The notes below the pieces were generated by a model that was given only the letters and a program-made list of their open reading frames with translations, did not search any database and was not told where the DNA came from. From the sequence record PZ386980.1: a stretch of 64,000 nucleotides of DNA. One strand, written 5' to 3'. Source of the stretch: a phage. Positions within the stretch are counted from its first letter, which is position 1; every line of letters begins with the position of its first letter. The translations under genes were made by a program, and so were the position numbers. Shown in pieces: positions 632 through 12,940 of this stretch.

Positions 632-781
632 TCAATTGATACATTCATATTTAACTTGTAACAGTAATAAACCCCAACCTAAAATAATAGTTGGAATCAT
701 AAGAGGAACCGTTACACTATAGTATATACTTATTATAATCATCAAGATTAAAAGCAACACTGTTATAATTTTGCTTTTCAT
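632..781 (-). CDS. small hydrophobic membrane peptide (~49 aa)
   Basis: ATG overlaps stop of upstream ORF (ATGA); mostly hydrophobic residues; below ORF-track cutoff, read by hand. Confidence 0.3.
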   Translation of the reverse strand: MKSKIITVLLLILMIIISIYYSVTVPLMIPTIILGWGLLLLQVKYECIN

Positions 782-1029
782 TCCTTCTCTCTGATGATAA
801 TTACCTGATTTGGTTGTGCAGACTTTTTAGTTTCACCCGCAATTGACCAAATAAATGTAATAAACCAACCAATAATTGACCAGTTAAACAGTAAAGATGT
901 GAAAAAGATTCCTACTGTCGATTTTGACCCACGCATCAAGGCGATAAACCATGGAAGCATGTATATAATAATAGCCAACACACCTGAAACTAAAACCATA
1001 AAAATTGAACCTGCTACTAAAGTTTCCAT
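778..1029 (-). CDS. imm: small two-helix membrane protein, Imm-like superinfection immunity candidate
   Basis: 83 aa, two hydrophobic segments, position between genes 42 and 43 as in T4. Confidence 0.5.
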   Translation of the reverse strand: METLVAGSIFMVLVSGVLAIIIYMLPWFIALMRGSKSTVGIFFTSLLFNWSIIGWFITFIWSIAGETKKSAQPNQVIIIREKE

Positions 1030-1036
1030 GTTTTCC

Positions 1037-1417
1037 TCACTTAGTCAAATTTTTTACGCATGAATTATAAGAATTCACTACATACTCCATCGGAGCATTT
1101 TTACCAGTACGCCATTGGTAATTATTAGCCCAATTAGCCCAAAGCTCGGCGCAGTAATTTTCAATTTTTTCTTCGCGTGTAATTACATCCGAATTACGAT
1201 ATGCTTGAGCAGATTCATCTGGACGAATAGCTTCGTCAAAATTCGCCTGCATTTGTTCTACTGTTTGCTTTGGAGCTTCTTTATAACACTTGACATTAGG
1301 ATTATAAAATTTGCTTGAACAGTTTACAATTTTTCCTACATCAGACTGATTTACTACCGGTCCTTGAGCTACACAACCAGTAAGACCTAATGCAATAACC
1401 AAAATAGCGATTTTCAT
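1037..1417 (-). CDS. putative lipoprotein
   Basis: N-terminus MKIAILVIALGLTGC has signal peptide plus lipobox cysteine; 126 aa. Confidence 0.6.
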   Translation of the reverse strand: MKIAILVIALGLTGCVAQGPVVNQSDVGKIVNCSSKFYNPNVKCYKEAPKQTVEQMQANFDEAIRPDESAQAYRNSDVITREEKIENYCAELWANWANNYQWRTGKNAPMEYVVNSYNSCVKNLTK

Positions 1418-1429
1418 AATAATTTCCTC

Positions 1430-1681
1430 TTAAAACTTAACAAATAACTTTAAAGCATCTTCAATTTTAATTCCTTTTCTTACACCCATAACAGAAATTG
1501 GCTGTGACTGAAATTTTCCTTTACCATTATAAATTTCTAATCCAGTCACCATTCCATTTTGTTCTATAATACCGTAAGTGTTGCCTTCATTTTCAAATTC
1601 TTTAACTTTAAAGAGTTTATTAGCTTTTTCTGCGTTAATAACTTTTAAATTTTGAATAAAATTAGTTTGAATATTTTTCAT
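1430..1681 (-). CDS. hypothetical early protein
   Basis: 83-aa ORF with GGAGG Shine-Dalgarno, directly downstream of early promoter. Confidence 0.55.
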   Translation of the reverse strand: MKNIQTNFIQNLKVINAEKANKLFKVKEFENEGNTYGIIEQNGMVTGLEIYNGKGKFQSQPISVMGVRKGIKIEDALKLFVKF

Positions 1682-1709
1682 TTTCGGTTCCTCCGTAGTT
1701 GATAGTTGT

Positions 1710-1739
1710 ATAGTACCATGGAAGAACAGTCTCGTAAAC
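1710..1739 (-). promoter_or_regulatory. early promoter (GTTTAC -35, 18-nt spacer, TACTAT -10)
   Basis: Member of dispersed conserved promoter repeat; correctly placed upstream of ORF 1430-1681. Confidence 0.6.
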
Positions 1740-1826
1740 AGTTTTGTGAAAATTTTTTAGGGAATTCTAAAGGTCCAGAATCATCTGTTTTTCATAAGTA
1801 TAGATTTATATTACTTGTATGAAAAG

Positions 1827-1842
1827 GGGACCCGGAGGTCCC
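1827..1842 (-). terminator. GC hairpin followed by U-run
   Basis: GGGACC-loop-GGTCCC followed by TTTTC on the minus strand, just after gene 43 stop. Confidence 0.5.
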
Positions 1843-1855
1843 TAGATTTATTCTA

Positions 1856-4552
1856 TCAGCCAAACAGGAAGTCTAACGAAGCTTTTTCTTCATAGTCCAT
1901 ACCAGCCGATTCACACATGCCTGCAAGCGGTTTAACAAACGATTTTTGGAACAAAGTTGAGTAGTCAATCCAAGACAATACGTCAGAACGAATTTCTTTT
2001 GGAAGTTCTGTGCCCGACGGCCAAGCAATGCACTTGTCACCAAATGGATTTCCTTCACGCAATGGAAGAACCATTACTTTATTTCCATCCAAAATTGGAG
2101 CTACACCCAGACCACTAACAGCTCGACGATAAGTTAGCACACCACGAATATGGAACGGACATTTAAATCCTGGCCAACCTTTATCATCATATTTCGCTAT
2201 ATCGTTCGCAGTTTTTACTTCAGCAATAACTTTATAGTCAAGTTGACGATATTCTTTCTCAAAGTTCTTATAATATTCTTGAACAGACTCTTCGCCTTCT
2301 TGAAGAATACGACGAATACTTTCTTCAAGAGCTTCTTGAACTGCTTTAGGCGTTGAACTTTGCTGAGTTTCCATACCCATGATTTTTAGATGCGGTTCAG
2401 CAAAACGCTTATCTTCCATATCATATACGTTCAGAGCATAACGCTTTTTCGCTTTCCAAAATCCACCAACGCCCTTTGAACCAAGTGGAGGGCAAGAAAT
2501 AGCTTCACGGTCCATATGCATCAGATGCTCGCGGTTATTCATATAATCACATAACTCACGATATGCAACATCAATCATAGGTTCCATCTTTTTCTTACCG
2601 AACTGATTCATGAATTCAACTAAATCGTTCTGCTCTTTGAATCGGTCAAGACCAACTTTTTCAATAACTTTATCTACACAAACATATACCGAATCAGTAT
2701 CACCTGCTGCAATGAAATCTTCGCCATTAGTTCCGCACACTTTATTCAGATACTCATTAATTTTACGAGCAATCCACTGAATACCAACTTGGCCGAAAAT
2801 TGTGATAGCAGTAGCATTTCGCAAATCATAGTAACGGAAATGAATATTACCAAGAGCACCGTAAAGGCTGTTAATAAGAATTTTACGGTTCAGCTGATTT
2901 GTATTAGCAAGTGTAGCCGCTTTTTCACATTCTTCAATCAAACTATTGAGAACAGATTCAGTATAATTCGATAGTTCATTTAAGAAATCATCACTGAACT
3001 TAACATATCGTTCAACTTCAGGTTTAGTTGAACAAGACCCTGCGCCTTTCATAATAATCTTTTTAATAGCTTCGGCATTCATTTCTTCAGCGAACATTTT
3101 CTTTTTCCAATCTTTACGCTGGAAAAATACTTTAGCGATTTCCTTTGGAATGATACCTTCTTGATGCTTATCGTACATCCATCCATTCGGAGAACAAGAA
3201 TATTCATCACTCGGTTTAGGAGCTGTTCCTGCGATATATTCATGAATTGGATGAACTTTAAACTGACCACGAATAGTCTCAGGACTAATGTTAACCTGAC
3301 GAATAATGCTCGGATACAGAGACGTCAAGTCAAAACTCATAATATATCGACGAGCAATTGGTTTAGGTTCAAATACAAATGCACCCGGAAAACTCTGTTT
3401 AACATGCGAACCTTGTTGAGGAATAACCTTGTGTTCACCTTTCAATGAGTTAAAAATAATAGCATCCCAGGTTTTAATAGGACTCATTACACCAGAAAAA
3501 GGCATTTTAGCGTAATAAGACATACTTAAAACTAGATCGATAAACCCGCGAATTTTATCAATTGCTTGAACTGATTCTACGTCAATGATGTTATAACTAA
3601 TGTATCGTTGATGATTAGTCTCACGAAGTTTATTAATAGGACCGTCGTATGGTAATTTACCTTTTTTGGTTTCATGCTGAGCAACTGATTCCAAAGAGAA
3701 TGACGGCAAATTAGTAAATGCGAATTTCTTATACAAATCTAAATAATCAAGAATAGATACGCCATCAATAGAATAAATTTCTTTGCTACCGTACATATTT
3801 TGGATAAGTTTAGATTTTACTCGACCGATTGGAGAGAAGCGTTTCATACTACGTTCACCGAGAACCATTTTAACGCGATTCATGATATACGGAACGTCAA
3901 ATCCCTCAATATTCCAACCAGTAAAAATAGCAGGTCGTTTCTGTTCCCAGAGATTGATATATTCCATGAGCATATCACGCTCATTATCGAATGGCATATA
4001 AATTACTCGGTCAAGAATTTCTTGAGGAACTTCATCACCACCTTCACAGTCAAGCTTAGCAGCTAACTTTGCATCCCATTTTGATACTGAACCATACATT
4101 GAATTCAAAAGGTCGAAAACATAAAAACGATCATCAATTGAATCGTAATGAGTGATAGCATCAATTTCATATTCAGCTTTCATTGGGTCAGGAAATTTAT
4201 CACCAGTAACCTCAATGTCACAGTTAGCTACACGAACAAATTTTCGGTCATAAACAATTTCTGAACCGTATGTATCACTGATATAAGCGAGTTTAAAATC
4301 GTTCATACCGAGAGCTTCGAGACCGATGTCTTCCATTCGTTTCATCCAATCTCGAGCATCTTTCATTGATGGAAATTTTTGAGGAGCGCAGTTTTTACCA
4401 TAGATGTCTTTGTATTTTGACTCTTCCTTACAATGCCTAAACATAGTCGGAAGATATTCTACTTCACGAGTACGTTCCTTTCCGTTTTCATCAATATAAC
4501 GTTCAACAATGTTATTTCCAACTGTTTCGATAGAGATATAAAATTCTTTCAT
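1856..4552 (-). CDS. 43: DNA polymerase (family B, with 3'-5' exonuclease)
   Basis: 898 aa, N-terminus MKEFYISIETVGNNIVERYIDENGKER as in T4 gp43. Confidence 0.97.
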   Translation of the reverse strand: MKEFYISIETVGNNIVERYIDENGKERTREVEYLPTMFRHCKEESKYKDIYGKNCAPQKFPSMKDARDWMKRMEDIGLEALGMNDFKLAYISDTYGSEIVYDRKFVRVANCDIEVTGDKFPDPMKAEYEIDAITHYDSIDDRFYVFDLLNSMYGSVSKWDAKLAAKLDCEGGDEVPQEILDRVIYMPFDNERDMLMEYINLWEQKRPAIFTGWNIEGFDVPYIMNRVKMVLGERSMKRFSPIGRVKSKLIQNMYGSKEIYSIDGVSILDYLDLYKKFAFTNLPSFSLESVAQHETKKGKLPYDGPINKLRETNHQRYISYNIIDVESVQAIDKIRGFIDLVLSMSYYAKMPFSGVMSPIKTWDAIIFNSLKGEHKVIPQQGSHVKQSFPGAFVFEPKPIARRYIMSFDLTSLYPSIIRQVNISPETIRGQFKVHPIHEYIAGTAPKPSDEYSCSPNGWMYDKHQEGIIPKEIAKVFFQRKDWKKKMFAEEMNAEAIKKIIMKGAGSCSTKPEVERYVKFSDDFLNELSNYTESVLNSLIEECEKAATLANTNQLNRKILINSLYGALGNIHFRYYDLRNATAITIFGQVGIQWIARKINEYLNKVCGTNGEDFIAAGDTDSVYVCVDKVIEKVGLDRFKEQNDLVEFMNQFGKKKMEPMIDVAYRELCDYMNNREHLMHMDREAISCPPLGSKGVGGFWKAKKRYALNVYDMEDKRFAEPHLKIMGMETQQSSTPKAVQEALEESIRRILQEGEESVQEYYKNFEKEYRQLDYKVIAEVKTANDIAKYDDKGWPGFKCPFHIRGVLTYRRAVSGLGVAPILDGNKVMVLPLREGNPFGDKCIAWPSGTELPKEIRSDVLSWIDYSTLFQKSFVKPLAGMCESAGMDYEEKASLDFLFG

Positions 4553-8209: not shown

Positions 8210-8923
8210 ATGAATTATAAACTAATTTATGAAAAGTTAATCTCTAATGCTAAATCTCGAAAACTTGATTGCTATACTGAATCTCATCACATTATACCAC
8301 GCTGTTTAAATGGCAGCGATGATGCTTCAAACTTAGTAGATTTAACACCGGAAGAGCACTATGTAGCTCATCAACTTTTAGTAAAAATTTATCCTTCTGA
8401 ACCAAAATTAATCTATGCTGCTAACATGATGACAGTTTCCACGAAATACGCTAAACGTAACAATAAAACTTTCGGTTGGATTCGTCGTAAACTCTGGGAA
8501 ATAGAAAAGAATAAAGAATTCTCCCAGGAGACACGAAAGAAAATGTCTGATGCAGTAGCTAATAAAGCAAGACTAACTTGTCCACATTGCGGTAAGTCCG
8601 GATTAAGCGGGAATATGAATCGATGGCATTTTGATAACTGCCCGAATCACCCTAATCCTAAAGTTAGACCACCGATGTCTAAAGAACACAGAAATAATAT
8701 CTCAAACGGGCTTAAAGCAATCATTCTTGAAGAAACATCCTGCGAATTCTGCGGAATGATAGGCAAGAAATGCGTTATTGCAGCGCATAGAAATTTCTGC
8801 AAGAAAAATCCAAATGGACGCAAGAAAACTGAAAAGACTGGTACTTGCGTCCATTGTGGTAAAGTTACCACTTTCGGAAATTTATCAAGGTGGCATAATG
8901 ATAACTGTAAGCACAAACATTAA
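8210..8923 (+). CDS. freestanding HNH homing endonuclease with three C-terminal Cys/His zinc-finger repeats
   Basis: HNH motif ESHHIIPRCLNGSDDASNLVDLTPEEHYVAHQ; repeats CPHCGKSG..WHFDNCPNH, CEFCGMIGKKCVIAAHRNFC, CVHCGKVT..WHNDNCKHK; opposite strand to neighbours. Confidence 0.8.
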   Translation: MNYKLIYEKLISNAKSRKLDCYTESHHIIPRCLNGSDDASNLVDLTPEEHYVAHQLLVKIYPSEPKLIYAANMMTVSTKYAKRNNKTFGWIRRKLWEIEKNKEFSQETRKKMSDAVANKARLTCPHCGKSGLSGNMNRWHFDNCPNHPNPKVRPPMSKEHRNNISNGLKAIILEETSCEFCGMIGKKCVIAAHRNFCKKNPNGRKKTEKTGTCVHCGKVTTFGNLSRWHNDNCKHKH

Positions 8924-10608
8924 TTAATAGTGGCAACACTAAATCTACCAACTTTTTCCATTTTAATATGCTGTCCATAATCCTGCGGATCATGGTCTTT
9001 ATGCGAAATTATGAAGAAGTTGGTATCCTTCAAACCATCTAAAATTTTAGCTACATTTTTAATGCCTTCAGCATCAAATGCACCGTCATACACTTCATCA
9101 AGAAATAAACAACTTATTTTAACACCTGAAACTTTTTCAGCAATATCACGCCAAGTAAATAAAAGAGCAATATCAATTCGCGCTTTTTCACCTTGACTGA
9201 ATGAAGCATAACTAAAATCTTCACGACCACGGGATTTAATTGTCTCATTAAATTCTTCATCTAATGTAAACACATAATCCGCTTCCATTATTTTAAGATA
9301 ATGGTTAATCTGCTTATTAAATAATGGAATGTACTTTTTAATAATAGCACCTTTAATACCAGAATCTTTGAGCATATCAGTCAAAATTCCTCGGTGGTAT
9401 TTTTCCATTACTAAATTAGTTTTTGTCTTAACAATTTTATCAAGTTCTTCTTGAAGCAGTGCTATTTCATCAGCATGGTCAATAAACTCAGAAGATGCTT
9501 TTTCTATAGCTGCTTTAACTTTTTTAGCTTTATCTACCGTCGTGATTAGAGATTGCTTTTTATTGCGAATATCATTTGCCAACGACTGCTGAGTTTTAAT
9601 ATTATCTCGGTATTCATCAACAAGAACTTTTAAATTATCACGGTGTGTTGAAAGCTGTTCAAACGAATGCGTACATTCAGAAACTTTATCTTTAATTTTA
9701 GAAACAACTTTATCACCGGAACTTAATTGTGACAAACAGGTTGGACATAATCCACCTTCGTGATACATATTAATGACTTTATTATACGAGTCAATTTTTG
9801 ATTTAATTAAAACTGCTTCTTGACCGATTTTATTAAACGCATCAGTCGGATCTTCATCCAAAACAATATTAACTAATCTTTCATTAGCTTCTTCTATTTC
9901 CGATTTTAGCGTTCTAGCTTCTTTTGCCAAATCATCATACATATTTTGCAGACGAGTAAGATTGTCACCCGTTAATTTTTTCTGGCGTTCAACGTTATCA
10001 TTATATATTTTAATTTGTTGGATAATACTATCTTTTTTAACATCAAGCACTTGGTTCTGCGAATTTAATTCACGTATTAGTGCTTTATTAAGCTTATCCA
10101 TTTCAGCTAATGTTCCTACCTCAAGCAGGTCTTCCACAAGCTTTCTTCGTGCAGGGGTCGACAAACCCATGAAAGGGGTATACCCTGCTGTACCAAGGAC
10201 AACAATCTGCTTGAAACTGGCATATGACATTCCGATAAGCTGTTCAAATTCTGCTTGGAAATCTTTACTGCTGGCAGATTCATTAAGACGTGTACCGTTA
10301 ACGGTGATTTCGAAAACGTTTGGTTTTTGTCCTCTTTTGATATAGTACTTTTTCTCATCATATTCCATCCACAGTTCAACTAAAAGTTCTTTCTTATTTG
10401 TGCTGTTTATTAATTGACCTTTCTTTACATCACGAAATGGCTTACCAAAAAGCCCAAATGTGATGGCTTCTAACATAGTAGACTTACCACCGCCATTTCG
10501 TCCAGTAATAAGAGTTTTTTGAACCTTATCTAATTGAATGTCAACTCCATTTTGACCAACTGACATTATATTTTTATATTTTACTCTATTAAGTTTAAAT
10601 GATTTCAT
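8920..10608 (-). CDS. 46: recombination endonuclease subunit (SbcC/Rad50-like ATPase)
   Basis: 562 aa, Walker A GRNGGGKST, long coiled coil, CxxC hook (CPTC), C-terminal signature and Walker B. Confidence 0.9.
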   Translation of the reverse strand: MKSFKLNRVKYKNIMSVGQNGVDIQLDKVQKTLITGRNGGGKSTMLEAITFGLFGKPFRDVKKGQLINSTNKKELLVELWMEYDEKKYYIKRGQKPNVFEITVNGTRLNESASSKDFQAEFEQLIGMSYASFKQIVVLGTAGYTPFMGLSTPARRKLVEDLLEVGTLAEMDKLNKALIRELNSQNQVLDVKKDSIIQQIKIYNDNVERQKKLTGDNLTRLQNMYDDLAKEARTLKSEIEEANERLVNIVLDEDPTDAFNKIGQEAVLIKSKIDSYNKVINMYHEGGLCPTCLSQLSSGDKVVSKIKDKVSECTHSFEQLSTHRDNLKVLVDEYRDNIKTQQSLANDIRNKKQSLITTVDKAKKVKAAIEKASSEFIDHADEIALLQEELDKIVKTKTNLVMEKYHRGILTDMLKDSGIKGAIIKKYIPLFNKQINHYLKIMEADYVFTLDEEFNETIKSRGREDFSYASFSQGEKARIDIALLFTWRDIAEKVSGVKISCLFLDEVYDGAFDAEGIKNVAKILDGLKDTNFFIISHKDHDPQDYGQHIKMEKVGRFSVATIN

Positions 10609-10623
10609 TTTGTATCCAATTGT

Positions 10624-11477
10624 TCACAATGAAGAAAATTCTTTAACTAAAGCCTGTAATGAAGCCTCTATTGGATATCCATTCTTAACTAACATTTTCC
10701 TAAACATTACATGTTTAGGACGATTATATGATATCCACAATTCATACAATTTATCTTTATTATCCCAATGATAGCCTTTTCGTCGAGATGCTATATGAGC
10801 TTTTCTAATCTCCGGATTTTTCCAACTAGCAGCTACTGAATTTGATATAGCTATTTTATATTCAGGTTTTGATAAAGCAGCACGAACAGCCTTTTGGTGT
10901 TTAATTTTATTTTCTTCGTTATTAAACCATTCCCTTGAAGCCATTGAAATTTTTGTTTTGTTTTAAAATTATTTAATCTTTCTTTATTATCTTTCCTATT
11001 TTTTGCTACTGAAAAATATTTTAATGCCCTTTCTCTAGCAGCATTTCTATTTTGCGGATTTGAATAATACTGTTGAAGCCTTTTTGATATTGTGTCACTT
11101 ACATCTTGTTTTATAAAACTATATTCAGCAGCTATTAAATCAACTTCGGCTAAAGATAAATTTTTATATGTTTTTCCTGACATCATTCTATTTAAAGCAT
11201 TTAGCATTTTTCCATTTTTACCTTTTGCTAATAAGAAGTGTGCTTTAAAATGATTAAAATGACTTAAATTAACTAAATTCCATGTAGATTTTAAATATTC
11301 AGGAAATATTGATTTAGGAAGCACGTGGTGTGCTTCCGTTTTACCTGGAGTTTTAACAGTTGAATTCACAGAAATAAAATTAATGTAAGACTTGGCGTCT
11401 TCTTCACTCAACGCTAATTTTTCAACTAATTCCTTTATTAAAAATTCATCATTAATGTCAAGTTTAAAATTCTTCAC
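10624..11477 (-). pseudogene. HNH homing endonuclease split across two overlapping reading frames
   Basis: ORF 10851-11477 carries the HNH motif (AHHVLP...N...H); the NUMOD-like basic DNA-binding tail continues in a different frame in ORF 10624-10944. Confidence 0.55.
11442..11461. repeat. 20-bp exact direct repeat, copy 1 (AAATTCATCATTAATGTCAA)
   Basis: Identical 20-mer recurs at 11645-11664. Confidence 0.9.
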
Positions 11478-11737
11478 AAAAGATTCCTTTTAATGTATCT
11501 TTTAGACCATTCTATCATATCATCATAATCTAAAAAGTATTCATCAAATTCAGCCATGCAAACAACGCCTTGTGCTGTTTTTGATGTAATATAAATTATT
11601 CCAACATATCTAGAATCTTCTTCGGTATAATCAATATTTGCTATAAATTCATCATTAATGTCAAATGTCGAAAACTTCACAGTATGCATCCTTAATACAA
11701 GATACAGCCATATCTCGTAATGATTTAGGTGTGTCAT
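11474..11737 (-). CDS. hypothetical small protein (start ambiguous, possibly a GTG start)
   Basis: ORF between genes 46 and 47; N-terminal region shares DINDEF with the HNH ORF. Confidence 0.4.
   Translation of the reverse strand: MTHLNHYEIWLYLVLRMHTVKFSTFDINDEFIANIDYTEEDSRYVGIIYITSKTAQGVVCMAEFDEYFLDYDDMIEWSKRYIKRNLL
11645..11664. repeat. 20-bp exact direct repeat, copy 2
   Basis: Identical to 11442-11461; encodes the shared DINDEF peptide. Confidence 0.9.
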
Positions 11738-11924
11738 TATCTAAAATGTTGAAGTTAAAAGATACAGCCCAGTCAGTGCAGACCGTAACCTTTTTAATAC
11801 AATTATCTTCAACCTCTAACGGTTCAAACCAATATTCAATAATTTCTTTATGCCCAATATCATCTTTTACTTCGCATTCAAAATGCTGACTCATCATAAC
11901 ATTTTTAAATTCATCAAAAGTCAT
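11661..11924 (-). CDS. hypothetical small protein
   Basis: 87-aa ORF immediately downstream of gene 47. Confidence 0.5.
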   Translation of the reverse strand: MTFDEFKNVMMSQHFECEVKDDIGHKEIIEYWFEPLEVEDNCIKKVTVCTDWAVSFNFNILDNDTPKSLRDMAVSCIKDAYCEVFDI

Positions 11925-12940
11925 TGTGTTGCCTCTACATATAACTGATTTGCATATTGAATAAGTGCTTCGCGGTCAGAATCAGTGATGTCTGGAATTG
12001 CATTAATGTATTCTTCCATCAACGTCTGAAGAGATTGAACTTCAACTTCTTCGCTTTCATCTGACTCGACAGAGTTATCAATTTTTGACACAACTCGTAA
12101 TGAATGCACAACTTTTTCTAGTTCAGATTCGAACTTCGTCAGATTTTTGTCTACCTCAGTTACTATAACACGTACTGATAGATTTGTAAAATCTTTATAG
12201 TCAATTTTTCCTTTAAATGGATAATGAATTCTACGATGCCAGGTAGTATTGTTTGGAATAAATTCCATTCGTTCTGTTTCTGTATCAAACATCCAGAACC
12301 CGCGAGGGTCATTCTCGTCACCTGCAGTTAGTGTCCATGGTGTCCCAATATATCTGACGTTTGCAGCCTCAGAAATAGTATGGAAGTGACCAGACCACAC
12401 TTCTTTATAAGTCTTAAGGAAATCAGGTTCAAGACCGTGAGATTTCATTCCTTTATAAAAATAAAATCCATTCAGTTCCCAGTGACCAACACAAAAAGAA
12501 GCAGATGAAGTTTTTATGTGCTCGAGAATTTCACCAGTATTTTCTTCACACATCCAAGGAATTAAATCAATTAAACATCCGTCAAAATCTACTGTAGTAG
12601 GCTTATCATATACTTTAACATTAGGATATTTAGCCAAAAGCTCAGTAGAGGCATTTGGAGTTAAAGTATTTTTAAAGTGCATATCATGGTTTCCTACAAC
12701 AGTATGTAGGGTAATACCAGCATCATCAAGCATTTGAACTATTTCACGAGCGAACTCCATAGTTTTATGCGTGATTGCTTTTCGCACATCAAAAATATCG
12801 CCATATTGAATCCAGGTAGTAATTCCATTTTTCTTAGAATATTCTATTGCTTGTTTAATTCCATCCAACTGAATGGATTGAACCCACTCGTCATCGGCTT
12901 TAACGCCTAAATGCCAATCACCTAAATTTAAAATTTTCAT
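11921..12940 (-). CDS. 47: recombination nuclease subunit (Mre11/SbcD-like phosphoesterase)
   Basis: 339 aa; metallophosphatase motifs GDWHLG, GDIFD, GNHD. Confidence 0.9.
   Translation of the reverse strand: MKILNLGDWHLGVKADDEWVQSIQLDGIKQAIEYSKKNGITTWIQYGDIFDVRKAITHKTMEFAREIVQMLDDAGITLHTVVGNHDMHFKNTLTPNASTELLAKYPNVKVYDKPTTVDFDGCLIDLIPWMCEENTGEILEHIKTSSASFCVGHWELNGFYFYKGMKSHGLEPDFLKTYKEVWSGHFHTISEAANVRYIGTPWTLTAGDENDPRGFWMFDTETERMEFIPNNTTWHRRIHYPFKGKIDYKDFTNLSVRVIVTEVDKNLTKFESELEKVVHSLRVVSKIDNSVESDESEEVEVQSLQTLMEEYINAIPDITDSDREALIQYANQLYVEATQ

Follow-up and report, generated by a model that had tools for sequence, protein, structure and literature searches.

Downstream of gene 47 in phages related to T4, in the interval leading to gene 46 (47/46, the Mre11/Rad50 locus), an endonuclease with an HNH motif appeared to be spread over two open reading frames (ORFs), and its first residues were echoed in a small neighboring ORF through a direct repeat. 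The locus raises the questions of whether one gene has been broken there, and by what, and of how the start of an endonuclease came to resemble the start of the gene beside it. Within the 64,000-nucleotide stretch of phage DNA that was analyzed (PZ386980.1, the window), the region is very probably a cassette carrying a Mob-type HNH homing endonuclease gene (HEG) at the junction of genes 46.1 and 46, with a chimeric leader, that was recently inactivated in phages RB51 and RB68 by the reduction of a run of six As (A6) to five (A5).

The 1.8-kb stretch around the HEG is 100% identical to RB51 (FJ839693, NC_012635) and to RB68 (KM607004, NC_027979), and many other Tequatrovirus genomes are 98.5-99.3% identical to it over the same length. 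The gene order, all on the minus strand, is 47, 46.2, 46.1, the two HNH ORFs and 46, and the small ORF that adjoins the HNH ORF proved to be T4 gene 46.1 (Pfam DUF5487, E = 4e-49). The longer of the two HNH ORFs, of 208 aa, bears the RefSeq name "homing endonuclease" in RB68. A promoter and terminator scan returned promoters at chance level. The genes of the interval and the parts of the split gene are the following:

11921-12940, minus strand: gene 47
11661-11924, minus strand: gene 46.2
11474-11680, minus strand: gene 46.1, 68 aa, DUF5487, intact, with an annotated GTG start at 11680
10851-11477, minus strand: the 208-aa ORF, which contains EAHHVLPKS...WNLVNL...HFNHFKAH
11238-11333, minus strand: the HNH catalytic core, residues 49-80 (AHHVLPKSIFPEYLKSTWNLVNLSHFNHFKAH), placed by invariant residues, structure model and BLASTP
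10950-10954, minus strand: the A5 run, site of a 1-nt deletion and the sole difference from phage PhiZZ23 in the whole gene
10624-10949, minus strand: the out-of-frame 3' part, read as a 106-aa ORF (10624-10944) and matched by BLASTP to the C-terminus of T4 MobD
8920-10608, minus strand: gene 46

The first-pass annotation of this DNA had described the two HNH ORFs (10851-11477 and 10624-10944, both minus) as lying in different frames with an overlap of 94 nt, and so they do, with coordinates that check. It had offered three explanations, i.e., a frameshifted pseudogene, a sequencing error or programmed frameshifting, and the comparison that bears most directly on these is with Citrobacter phage PhiZZ23, in which a single 855-nt "homing endonuclease" ORF is annotated at the same position. 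Across the whole gene the window lacks one A in the run CAAAAAAT and is otherwise identical to PhiZZ23. With one A added, the window has a 284-aa ORF that matches the PhiZZ23 allele exactly, as the pseudogene explanation would have it. Intact alleles have A6, read CAA AAA ATT (Q175, K176, I177). The 208-aa ORF is authentic through K176, its residues 1-176 being the N-terminal part of the enzyme (leader, HNH nuclease core and helical linker), and its residues 177-208 (32 residues) are out of frame and end at a TAG. The basic helical repeats and a MobD-like C-terminal domain (YHWDNKDKLYELWISYNRPKHVMFRKMLVKNGYPIEASLQALVKEF) are in the 3' part, 10624-10949.

The restored protein was assigned by several searches. 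It matched PHROG 655, "homing endonuclease", with an E value of 8e-45, and also PHROG 12434; BLASTP aligned it with T4 MobD at 30% identity over residues 47-281 (235 residues, E = 1e-17) and more weakly with MobB (4e-8) and MobC (2e-7), the HNH motif falling within all three alignments, and in a blastn search mobC genes matched over 165 nt at about 74%. Among six aligned family members, H50, H51, N67, H76 and H80 are invariant, and the AlphaFold model has strands at residues 47-51 and 68-72 and a helix at 73-84 (pLDDT about 88), with residues 1-10 unstructured. Pfam searches with both ORFs and the intact protein found no HNH family at E <= 10 and no NUMOD at thresholds, an NCBIfam scan gave no significant HNH domain, and neither PDB sequences nor fold searches with the AlphaFold model gave anything significant; membership in the HNH superfamily is therefore founded on the motif, the model and the Mob homology. 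The basic tail of the enzyme does continue in ORF 10624-10944, as the first reading of the sequence had it, but the label "NUMOD-like" given to it was a loose one. The intact protein of 284 aa would consist of a 12-residue leader, the HNH core (residues about 45-85), a basic helical linker and the MobD-like C-terminal domain, the last presumably serving DNA binding.

The kinship to the T4 Mob enzymes is evident in several respects. MobD, MobB, MobC and MobE have the same HNH core, HH..N..H..AH, and the same basic helical middle region, and MobD also has the C-terminal domain HW.DYD.LY.LWI..NRPK...F......GYP......L...F; the T4 Mob genes, too, are free-standing, wedged between conserved phage genes and overlapping the upstream stop codon. 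The RB51 HEG differs from them in its location, 46.1/46, where T4 has no HEG, in its catalytic loop (PKSIFPEYLKSTWN versus P.C.GG.DD..N in Mob), and in its start, a GTG taken from gene 46 that opens a 12-residue leader composed of codons of neighboring genes. MobE is reportedly the Mob enzyme of T4 that has been studied. One "other HNH" HEG each is given for T2, T6 and RB51, with no locus, in Table 5 of Petrov et al. 2010 (PMC2993671), and this may be the gene at 46.1/46.

Of 519 matching phage records, 72 have the gene; T4 lacks it. In most of the carrier records (about 70 deposited T-even phages) it is one 284-aa ORF, and it is intact in, e.g., T6, PhiZZ23 and SYGD1. An 81-nt probe laid across the A run matched 56 records, and A5 (a span of 81 nt) occurred only in four of them, all RB51 or RB68; the other 52 had A6, recognized by a span of 82 nt, or of 81 nt in four that aligned from query base 2. 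An alignment of the window with T4, T6 and T2 likewise showed A6 in T6 and T2 at the site of the RB51 lesion. T2 and its close copies have lost 2 nt at gene nt 609-610, an independent frameshift, and a further one is that of MLP2, which lacks 1 nt at gene nt 727.

A missing base in a homopolymer, in a gene otherwise 100% identical to an intact allele, invites the suspicion of a sequencing or assembly artefact, with the true RB51 having A6 and an intact 284-aa gene. Restoration of one continuous ORF by a single-base correction had been proposed beforehand as the sign of such an error; the correction does restore the ORF, but an artefact does not follow from it, since the identical A5 is found in RB51 and in RB68, which were deposited separately. 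RB68 was sequenced separately from RB51, on the Illumina MiSeq platform at 3,187x with de novo assembly (PMC4293622). Its assembly was by Velvet, from 250-bp paired reads, and the record of Ac3, which is colinear with RB51, keeps the same two-frame arrangement. Illumina reads contain few errors at runs of 5-6 nt, and the other real frameshifts, those of T2 and MLP2, show decay of this gene to be common. An artefact is very unlikely on this evidence, and we regard A5 as real because two separately sequenced phages share it, one of them at such depth; it is, as far as comparison of the deposited sequences goes, a recent mutation of the RB51/RB68 lineage. Programmed recoding would instead have a full-length enzyme made in low, regulated amounts, by a -1 slip of tRNA-Lys on C-AAA-AAU or by transcriptional slippage, and it has the attractions that ribosomes slipping by -1 on A_AAA at 10950-10954 would produce the wild-type ..KQK-ISMAS.. 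exactly and that low expression of a toxic nuclease is plausible. The site, though, is CAA_AAA_U, with no X_XXY_YYZ tandem-slip heptamer and with a P-site CAA that cannot re-pair, and a run of five As is too short for efficient transcriptional slippage. No structure that might assist a slip was seen downstream, the 136 nt around and 3' of the run being no more stably folded than shuffled sequences (z = 0.19), and the other carriers that were examined here are in frame across the site, with A6, which argues against selection for recoding. This last of the three initial explanations is extremely unlikely.

The frameshifted gene might also have been domesticated as a split enzyme, the 208-aa HNH fragment being kept for a function of its own, either alone or with a separately translated C-terminal fragment. 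The three independent frameshifts (gene nt 524-529, 609-610 and 727) are indeed all 3' of the HNH core and leave the core open. Such a placement of three out of three events in the last ~40% of the gene has, by our own estimate, a chance of about 0.06, however, and is marginally unusual; the ATG at 10944 has no Shine-Dalgarno sequence, and the RB51 allele is otherwise unchanged, as would fit a very recent lesion and not a maintained state. Maintenance as a split enzyme is highly improbable in light of these points. We also give little credence to a related proposal, namely that the frameshifted alleles of RB51/RB68, T2 and MLP2, in which the HNH core was spared, are attenuated or two-piece versions of the enzyme; were it true, a low level of -1 slippage on A_AAA, or the cooperation of two fragments, would provide the phage with a throttled endonuclease.

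The reading that we prefer is simple decay: the RB51 allele would yield an HNH fragment without the DNA-binding part, and the gene would be a pseudogene that has entered the decay stage of the HEG life cycle. Precedents for this are known in T4, as the truncated I-TevIII of the nrdB intron is a degenerate HEG, and invasion, decay and loss form the cycle described by Goddard and Burt. The RB51 gene resembles I-TevIII in being an inactivated endonuclease ORF that stays in place after invasion, and it resembles degenerate HEGs in that the lesions differ by lineage (RB51/RB68, T2, MLP2), i.e., decay has occurred independently in separate lineages. It is unlike the truncated I-TevIII in being free-standing and not intron-borne, and in having a single-base lesion with no further decay. 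This is an ordinary decaying HEG of a known kind, and the current understanding of homing endonucleases is unchanged by it; the consequence for annotation is that 10624-11477 should be given as one pseudogene (Mob-like HNH HEG, 1-nt deletion) and not as two or three hypothetical proteins.

The second question, regarding the start of the gene, required the limits of the inserted DNA to be located. In the alignment of the window with T4, T6 and T2, about 869 nt (from 11459 to 10591, or offset from this by a 9-nt repeat) are missing from T4, where GTGAAGAATTTTAAACTT|AATAGAGTA is contiguous with nothing between, and where the stop of 46.1 overlaps the start of gene 46 (...CTTTTGTGAAGAATTTTAAACTT|AATAGAGTA...). 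The elements that make up the insertion and its edges are:

10591-11477, minus strand: the whole HEG cassette as present in RB51/RB68, running from the start codon of the HNH ORF through the replacement gene 46 start
11460-11477, minus strand: HEG codons 1-6, GTGAAGAATTTTAAACTT, the same as the opening 18 nt of gene 46 in T4
11460-11468, minus strand: left copy of a 9-bp direct repeat, TTTAAACTT, found on either side of the insertion
11442-11461, minus strand: 20-bp repeat, HEG copy, codons 6-12 (..LDINDEF), beginning where the homology to T4 gene 46 ends
11645-11664, minus strand: 20-bp repeat, resident copy in 46.1, codons 6-12 (..FDINDEF), spanning the stop codon of 46.2
10609-10623, minus strand: a 15-nt spacer, ACAATTGGATACAAA, from the HEG stop to gene 46
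10591-10608, minus strand: the replacement gene 46 start, ATGAAATCATTTAAACTT, encoding MKSFKL versus MKNFKL in T4
10591-10599, minus strand: right copy of the 9-bp direct repeat

At the left edge, the GTG of the HEG overlaps the TGA stop of 46.1 (GTGA), and its codons 1-6 are followed directly by GACATTAATGATGAATTT, which is the remainder of the 20-bp repeat and a copy of codons 7-12 of 46.1. At the right edge, homology to T4 resumes after the replacement start of gene 46. The spacer and this start align at 17/24 positions with the 3' tail of a sister HEG of Gelderlandvirus, and Mosigvirus G53, which is HEG-less, uses the same ATGAAATCATTTAAA start for gene 46, so the right flank is best taken as a part of the travelling cassette; other genera match gene 46 from the ATG onwards. 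The spacer was also considered as a remnant of the 3' end of a Mosigvirus-type 46.1, an idea that was dropped because the Gelderlandvirus HEG tail explains it at least as well. With this arrangement, the GTG of the HEG would appropriate the translational coupling that gene 46 has in T4, and the right side of the cassette would supply gene 46 with the 15-nt spacer and a new ATG start. It is a small example of how a free-standing HEG assembles its expression signals from its neighbors, taking the coupled GTG of an essential gene, adding the codons of another gene, and giving the essential gene a replacement start.

As for the repeat, the 20-mer TTGACATTAATGATGAATTT has exactly two copies in the 64-kb window, at the two positions first reported for it (11442-11461 and 11645-11664) and both on the minus strand. 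When up to 3 mismatches were allowed, shuffled sequences averaged 0.08 matches, and two or more were found in 0 of 100 shuffles. The similarity extends beyond the 20-mer as an ungapped match of 45 nt at 80% identity that starts from the GTGAAG start codons of 46.1 and the HEG, and the repeat is equidistant from the two start codons, i.e., in register, with N-termini of MKFSTFDINDEFI in 46.1 and MKNFKLDINDEFL in the HNH protein. The suggestion that the repeat marks an insertion boundary held up, in that the T4 alignment has it starting at the left boundary. The accompanying suggestion, that the endonuclease had duplicated, or become joined to, the 5' end of a gene already resident there, was right in part: codons 7-12 of 46.1 were copied, but the description was incomplete, as codons 1-6 are those of a T4-type gene 46 start.

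There are several reasons to regard this leader as foreign to the enzyme. The motif F-[DNS]-[IL]-x-D-E-F is native to the 46.1 family, with diverged forms in distant homologues. When 1.8 billion representative proteins were searched, the best-scoring homologues of the HEG product mostly aligned from query residue ~13 or later, usually within their own first ~20 residues; the closest full-length relatives, P0043 and the HEGs of Gelderlandvirus and Mosigvirus, begin near the position of residue 11 and have no such motif. With the homologues mostly aligning from about residue 13, the first ten residues unstructured in the model, and the motif at home in 46.1, codons 7-12 of the HEG were probably borrowed from a 46.1 of the Tequatrovirus type. 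As read from these alignments, the duplicated peptide is the scar of the stitching of the cassette to the starts of two neighbors. Fusion to the 5' end of 46.1 is, moreover, a documented state for this clade of HEGs, since comparison with the HEG-less G53 showed that the Mosigvirus HEG retains codons 1-7 of the local 46.1 (MTKTDYE) and replaces the remaining 46.1.

An unlikely, though not negligible, alternative is that the HEG's own, native N-terminus is DINDEF, the 20-bp identity having arisen by gene conversion between two sequences 203 bp apart that resembled each other by chance, or else that T4 itself is the scar of a deletion between the 9-bp repeats. Several homologues do have short acidic, hydrophobic N-termini of similar length, with a faint likeness to that of the HEG in some (e.g., MIDAET.. 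and MNKDFLL..), and the distance from Met1 to the HH pair, 38-50 residues across the family, fits a native leader as well as a borrowed one. Against a native DINDEF, the motif has changed along with the remainder of 46.1 in distant lineages (FNLDDEF, FSIGDGY), making 46.1 its older owner, it is lacking in the closest full-length homologues, which start near the position of residue 11, and the Mosigvirus sister demonstrably took 46.1 codons. The 9-bp TTTAAACTT repeats could mediate a precise loss of the cassette, as the deletion proposal requires. In L016 and L017, however, which represent a HEG-less lineage ~73% identical to T4, a GTGAAG start of gene 46 overlaps and is coupled to the stop of 46.1; this makes the T4-type start less likely to be a deletion scar, and on the same grounds we take it to be native and to have been captured by the HEG.

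If the borrowed leader is accepted, we infer an origin in which a genome with codons 1-12 of 46.1 fused to the HEG would have recombined with a T4-type gene 46, the similar GTGAAG 5' ends of the two being aligned in register. The product would have been an intact 46.1, followed by codons 1-6 of gene 46, codons 7-12 of 46.1, the HEG and the new start of gene 46. The predicted intermediate, in which codons 1-12 of 46.1 are fused to the HEG and an intact 46.1 is lacking, did not turn up in 50,697 phage records searched by blastn with a chimeric query; the 30 best of the 71 full-coverage records had only two-piece matches spanning 471 nt, which is the window type. Exact-pattern scans of the IMG/VR and JGI metagenomes carried no information on the intermediate, since the real junction, which served as a positive control, was absent from them along with the hypothetical one.

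Sister HEGs with about 43% protein identity are found in the same interval in Mosigvirus vB_EcoM-172859UKE1 (MZ234025), with the order 47-46.2-HEG-46, and in Gelderlandvirus UoN_LG358_1 (OK570374), with the order 47-HEG-46; a search of IMG/VR for relatives found none. The sisters are like the RB51 HEG in architecture, in occupying the 47-46 interval and in having a 3' end that abuts or overlaps the start of gene 46. They differ from it in that the Mosigvirus gene replaces 46.1 and the Gelderlandvirus gene comes directly after 47, and neither has the chimeric 46-plus-46.1 leader or a separate spacer before gene 46.

The mobility of the cassette is suggested by a metagenomic contig, L019, that has an intact copy of the 284-aa HEG in a Mosigvirus-like genome. 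Compared in 40-nt blocks, L019 matches Mosigvirus G53 at 99-100% identity across 47, 46.2 and the 5' half of 46.1. A stretch of ~100% identity to the window follows, which takes in the 3' end of 46.1, the HEG, the spacer and the first ~70 nt of gene 46, and beyond it identity to the window falls back to ~80%. The tract of Tequatrovirus type is ~1,040 nt long and centred on the HEG, and it looks like the trace of homing with co-conversion of flanking markers. One clade of HEGs has followed the 47-46 interval in three genera and left a co-conversion tract. In T4, the intronless homing of SegF, SegG and MobE takes the form of localized marker exclusion with co-conversion. The RB51-type HEG is like these in its presence/absence polymorphism among close relatives and in the donor-type flanking tract of L019, and unlike them in being known from sequence comparison and, in RB51, in being broken. 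By homology and these comparative signatures we infer a homing function for the intact enzyme, which would cut close to the gene 46 start in genomes that lack the HEG and would spread by double-strand-break repair with co-conversion. The intact alleles of T6 and PhiZZ23 provide a convenient, uncharacterised candidate enzyme for intronless homing at 47/46. The 5' end of 46.1 in L019 is of the Mosigvirus type, from which it follows that the DINDEF leader travels with the HEG and needs no match in the gene adjoining it.

The free-standing Mob-type HNH homing endonuclease gene (HEG) between 46.1 and 46 also occurs outside the genus of the RB51-type phages, in the Mosigvirus-like metagenomic contig L019.

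Features of the HEG interval and its counterparts
L019 (Logan ERR10686928 contig 1885), locus about 1341-2380: Tequatrovirus-type tract, ~1,040 nt
L006 (phage T2, PV958097), gene nt 609-610: HEG frameshift, 2-nt deletion
L015 (phage MLP2, OK148441), gene nt 727: HEG frameshift, 1-nt deletion
Window 10624-11473: HEG interval without annotation in RB51 records FJ839693 and NC_012635
Window 11317-11337: near-perfect palindrome GGAAGCAC-ACCAC-GTGCTTCC, stem 8-9 bp
Window 11661-11680: 46.2 stop / 46.1 start overlap
L008 (Mosigvirus, MZ234025.1), locus 2312-2354: gene 46 start region
L012 (Enterobacteria phage Ac3, OK040907.1), locus 713-3126, window about 9400-11477: synonymously altered segment, apparently recoded

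The L019 tract comprises the 3' end of 46.1, an intact HEG and the first ~70 nt of gene 46, and it appears to have crossed between genera by homing with co-conversion. Since the tract takes in the 46.1 3' end, the 46.1 of this contig (P0041) is a chimera. Loss of the reading frame has also recurred: the frameshifts of T2 (whose deletion is common to its close copies) and MLP2 are independent, and each, like that of RB51, comes after the HNH core in the gene. No pseudogene label is attached to the HEG in the RB51 records or the RB68 RefSeq; in the former, ORF numbers skip from 058 to 061 and the entire interval is blank, and in the latter it is filled by a 208-aa "homing endonuclease" and a 38-aa hypothetical protein.

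The copy of the 20-bp repeat that is resident in 46.1 contains the TGA stop of 46.2 (11661-11663). The start of 46.1, in a different frame, precedes this stop by 20 nt, so the repeated sequence in 46.1 is dual-coding for the 46.2 C-terminus and the 46.1 N-terminus. The palindrome, scored terminator-like on the plus strand in our scan, coincides exactly with the HEG catalytic codons E-A-H-H-V-L-P. Regulatory hairpins are on record for other mob genes; this one is probably incidental, because the sister genes of Mosigvirus and Gelderlandvirus lack it.

The L008 gene 46, deposited with an ATG start at 2354, is probably 14 codons too short, because the conserved N-terminus MKTFKLNRVRYKNIMS begins at a GTG at 2312, which overlaps the HEG end. 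The Ac3 record is colinear with that of RB51, with the same record coordinates and identical upstream sequence, and preserves its two-frame arrangement. From the HNH start codon (itself GTG to GTT) through gene 46, nearly all codons are synonymous swaps to E. coli-preferred ones. Over 1,795 nt there are 289 mismatches, of which 103 are T>C; the segment looks like a synthetic or in-silico recoding rather than natural divergence.
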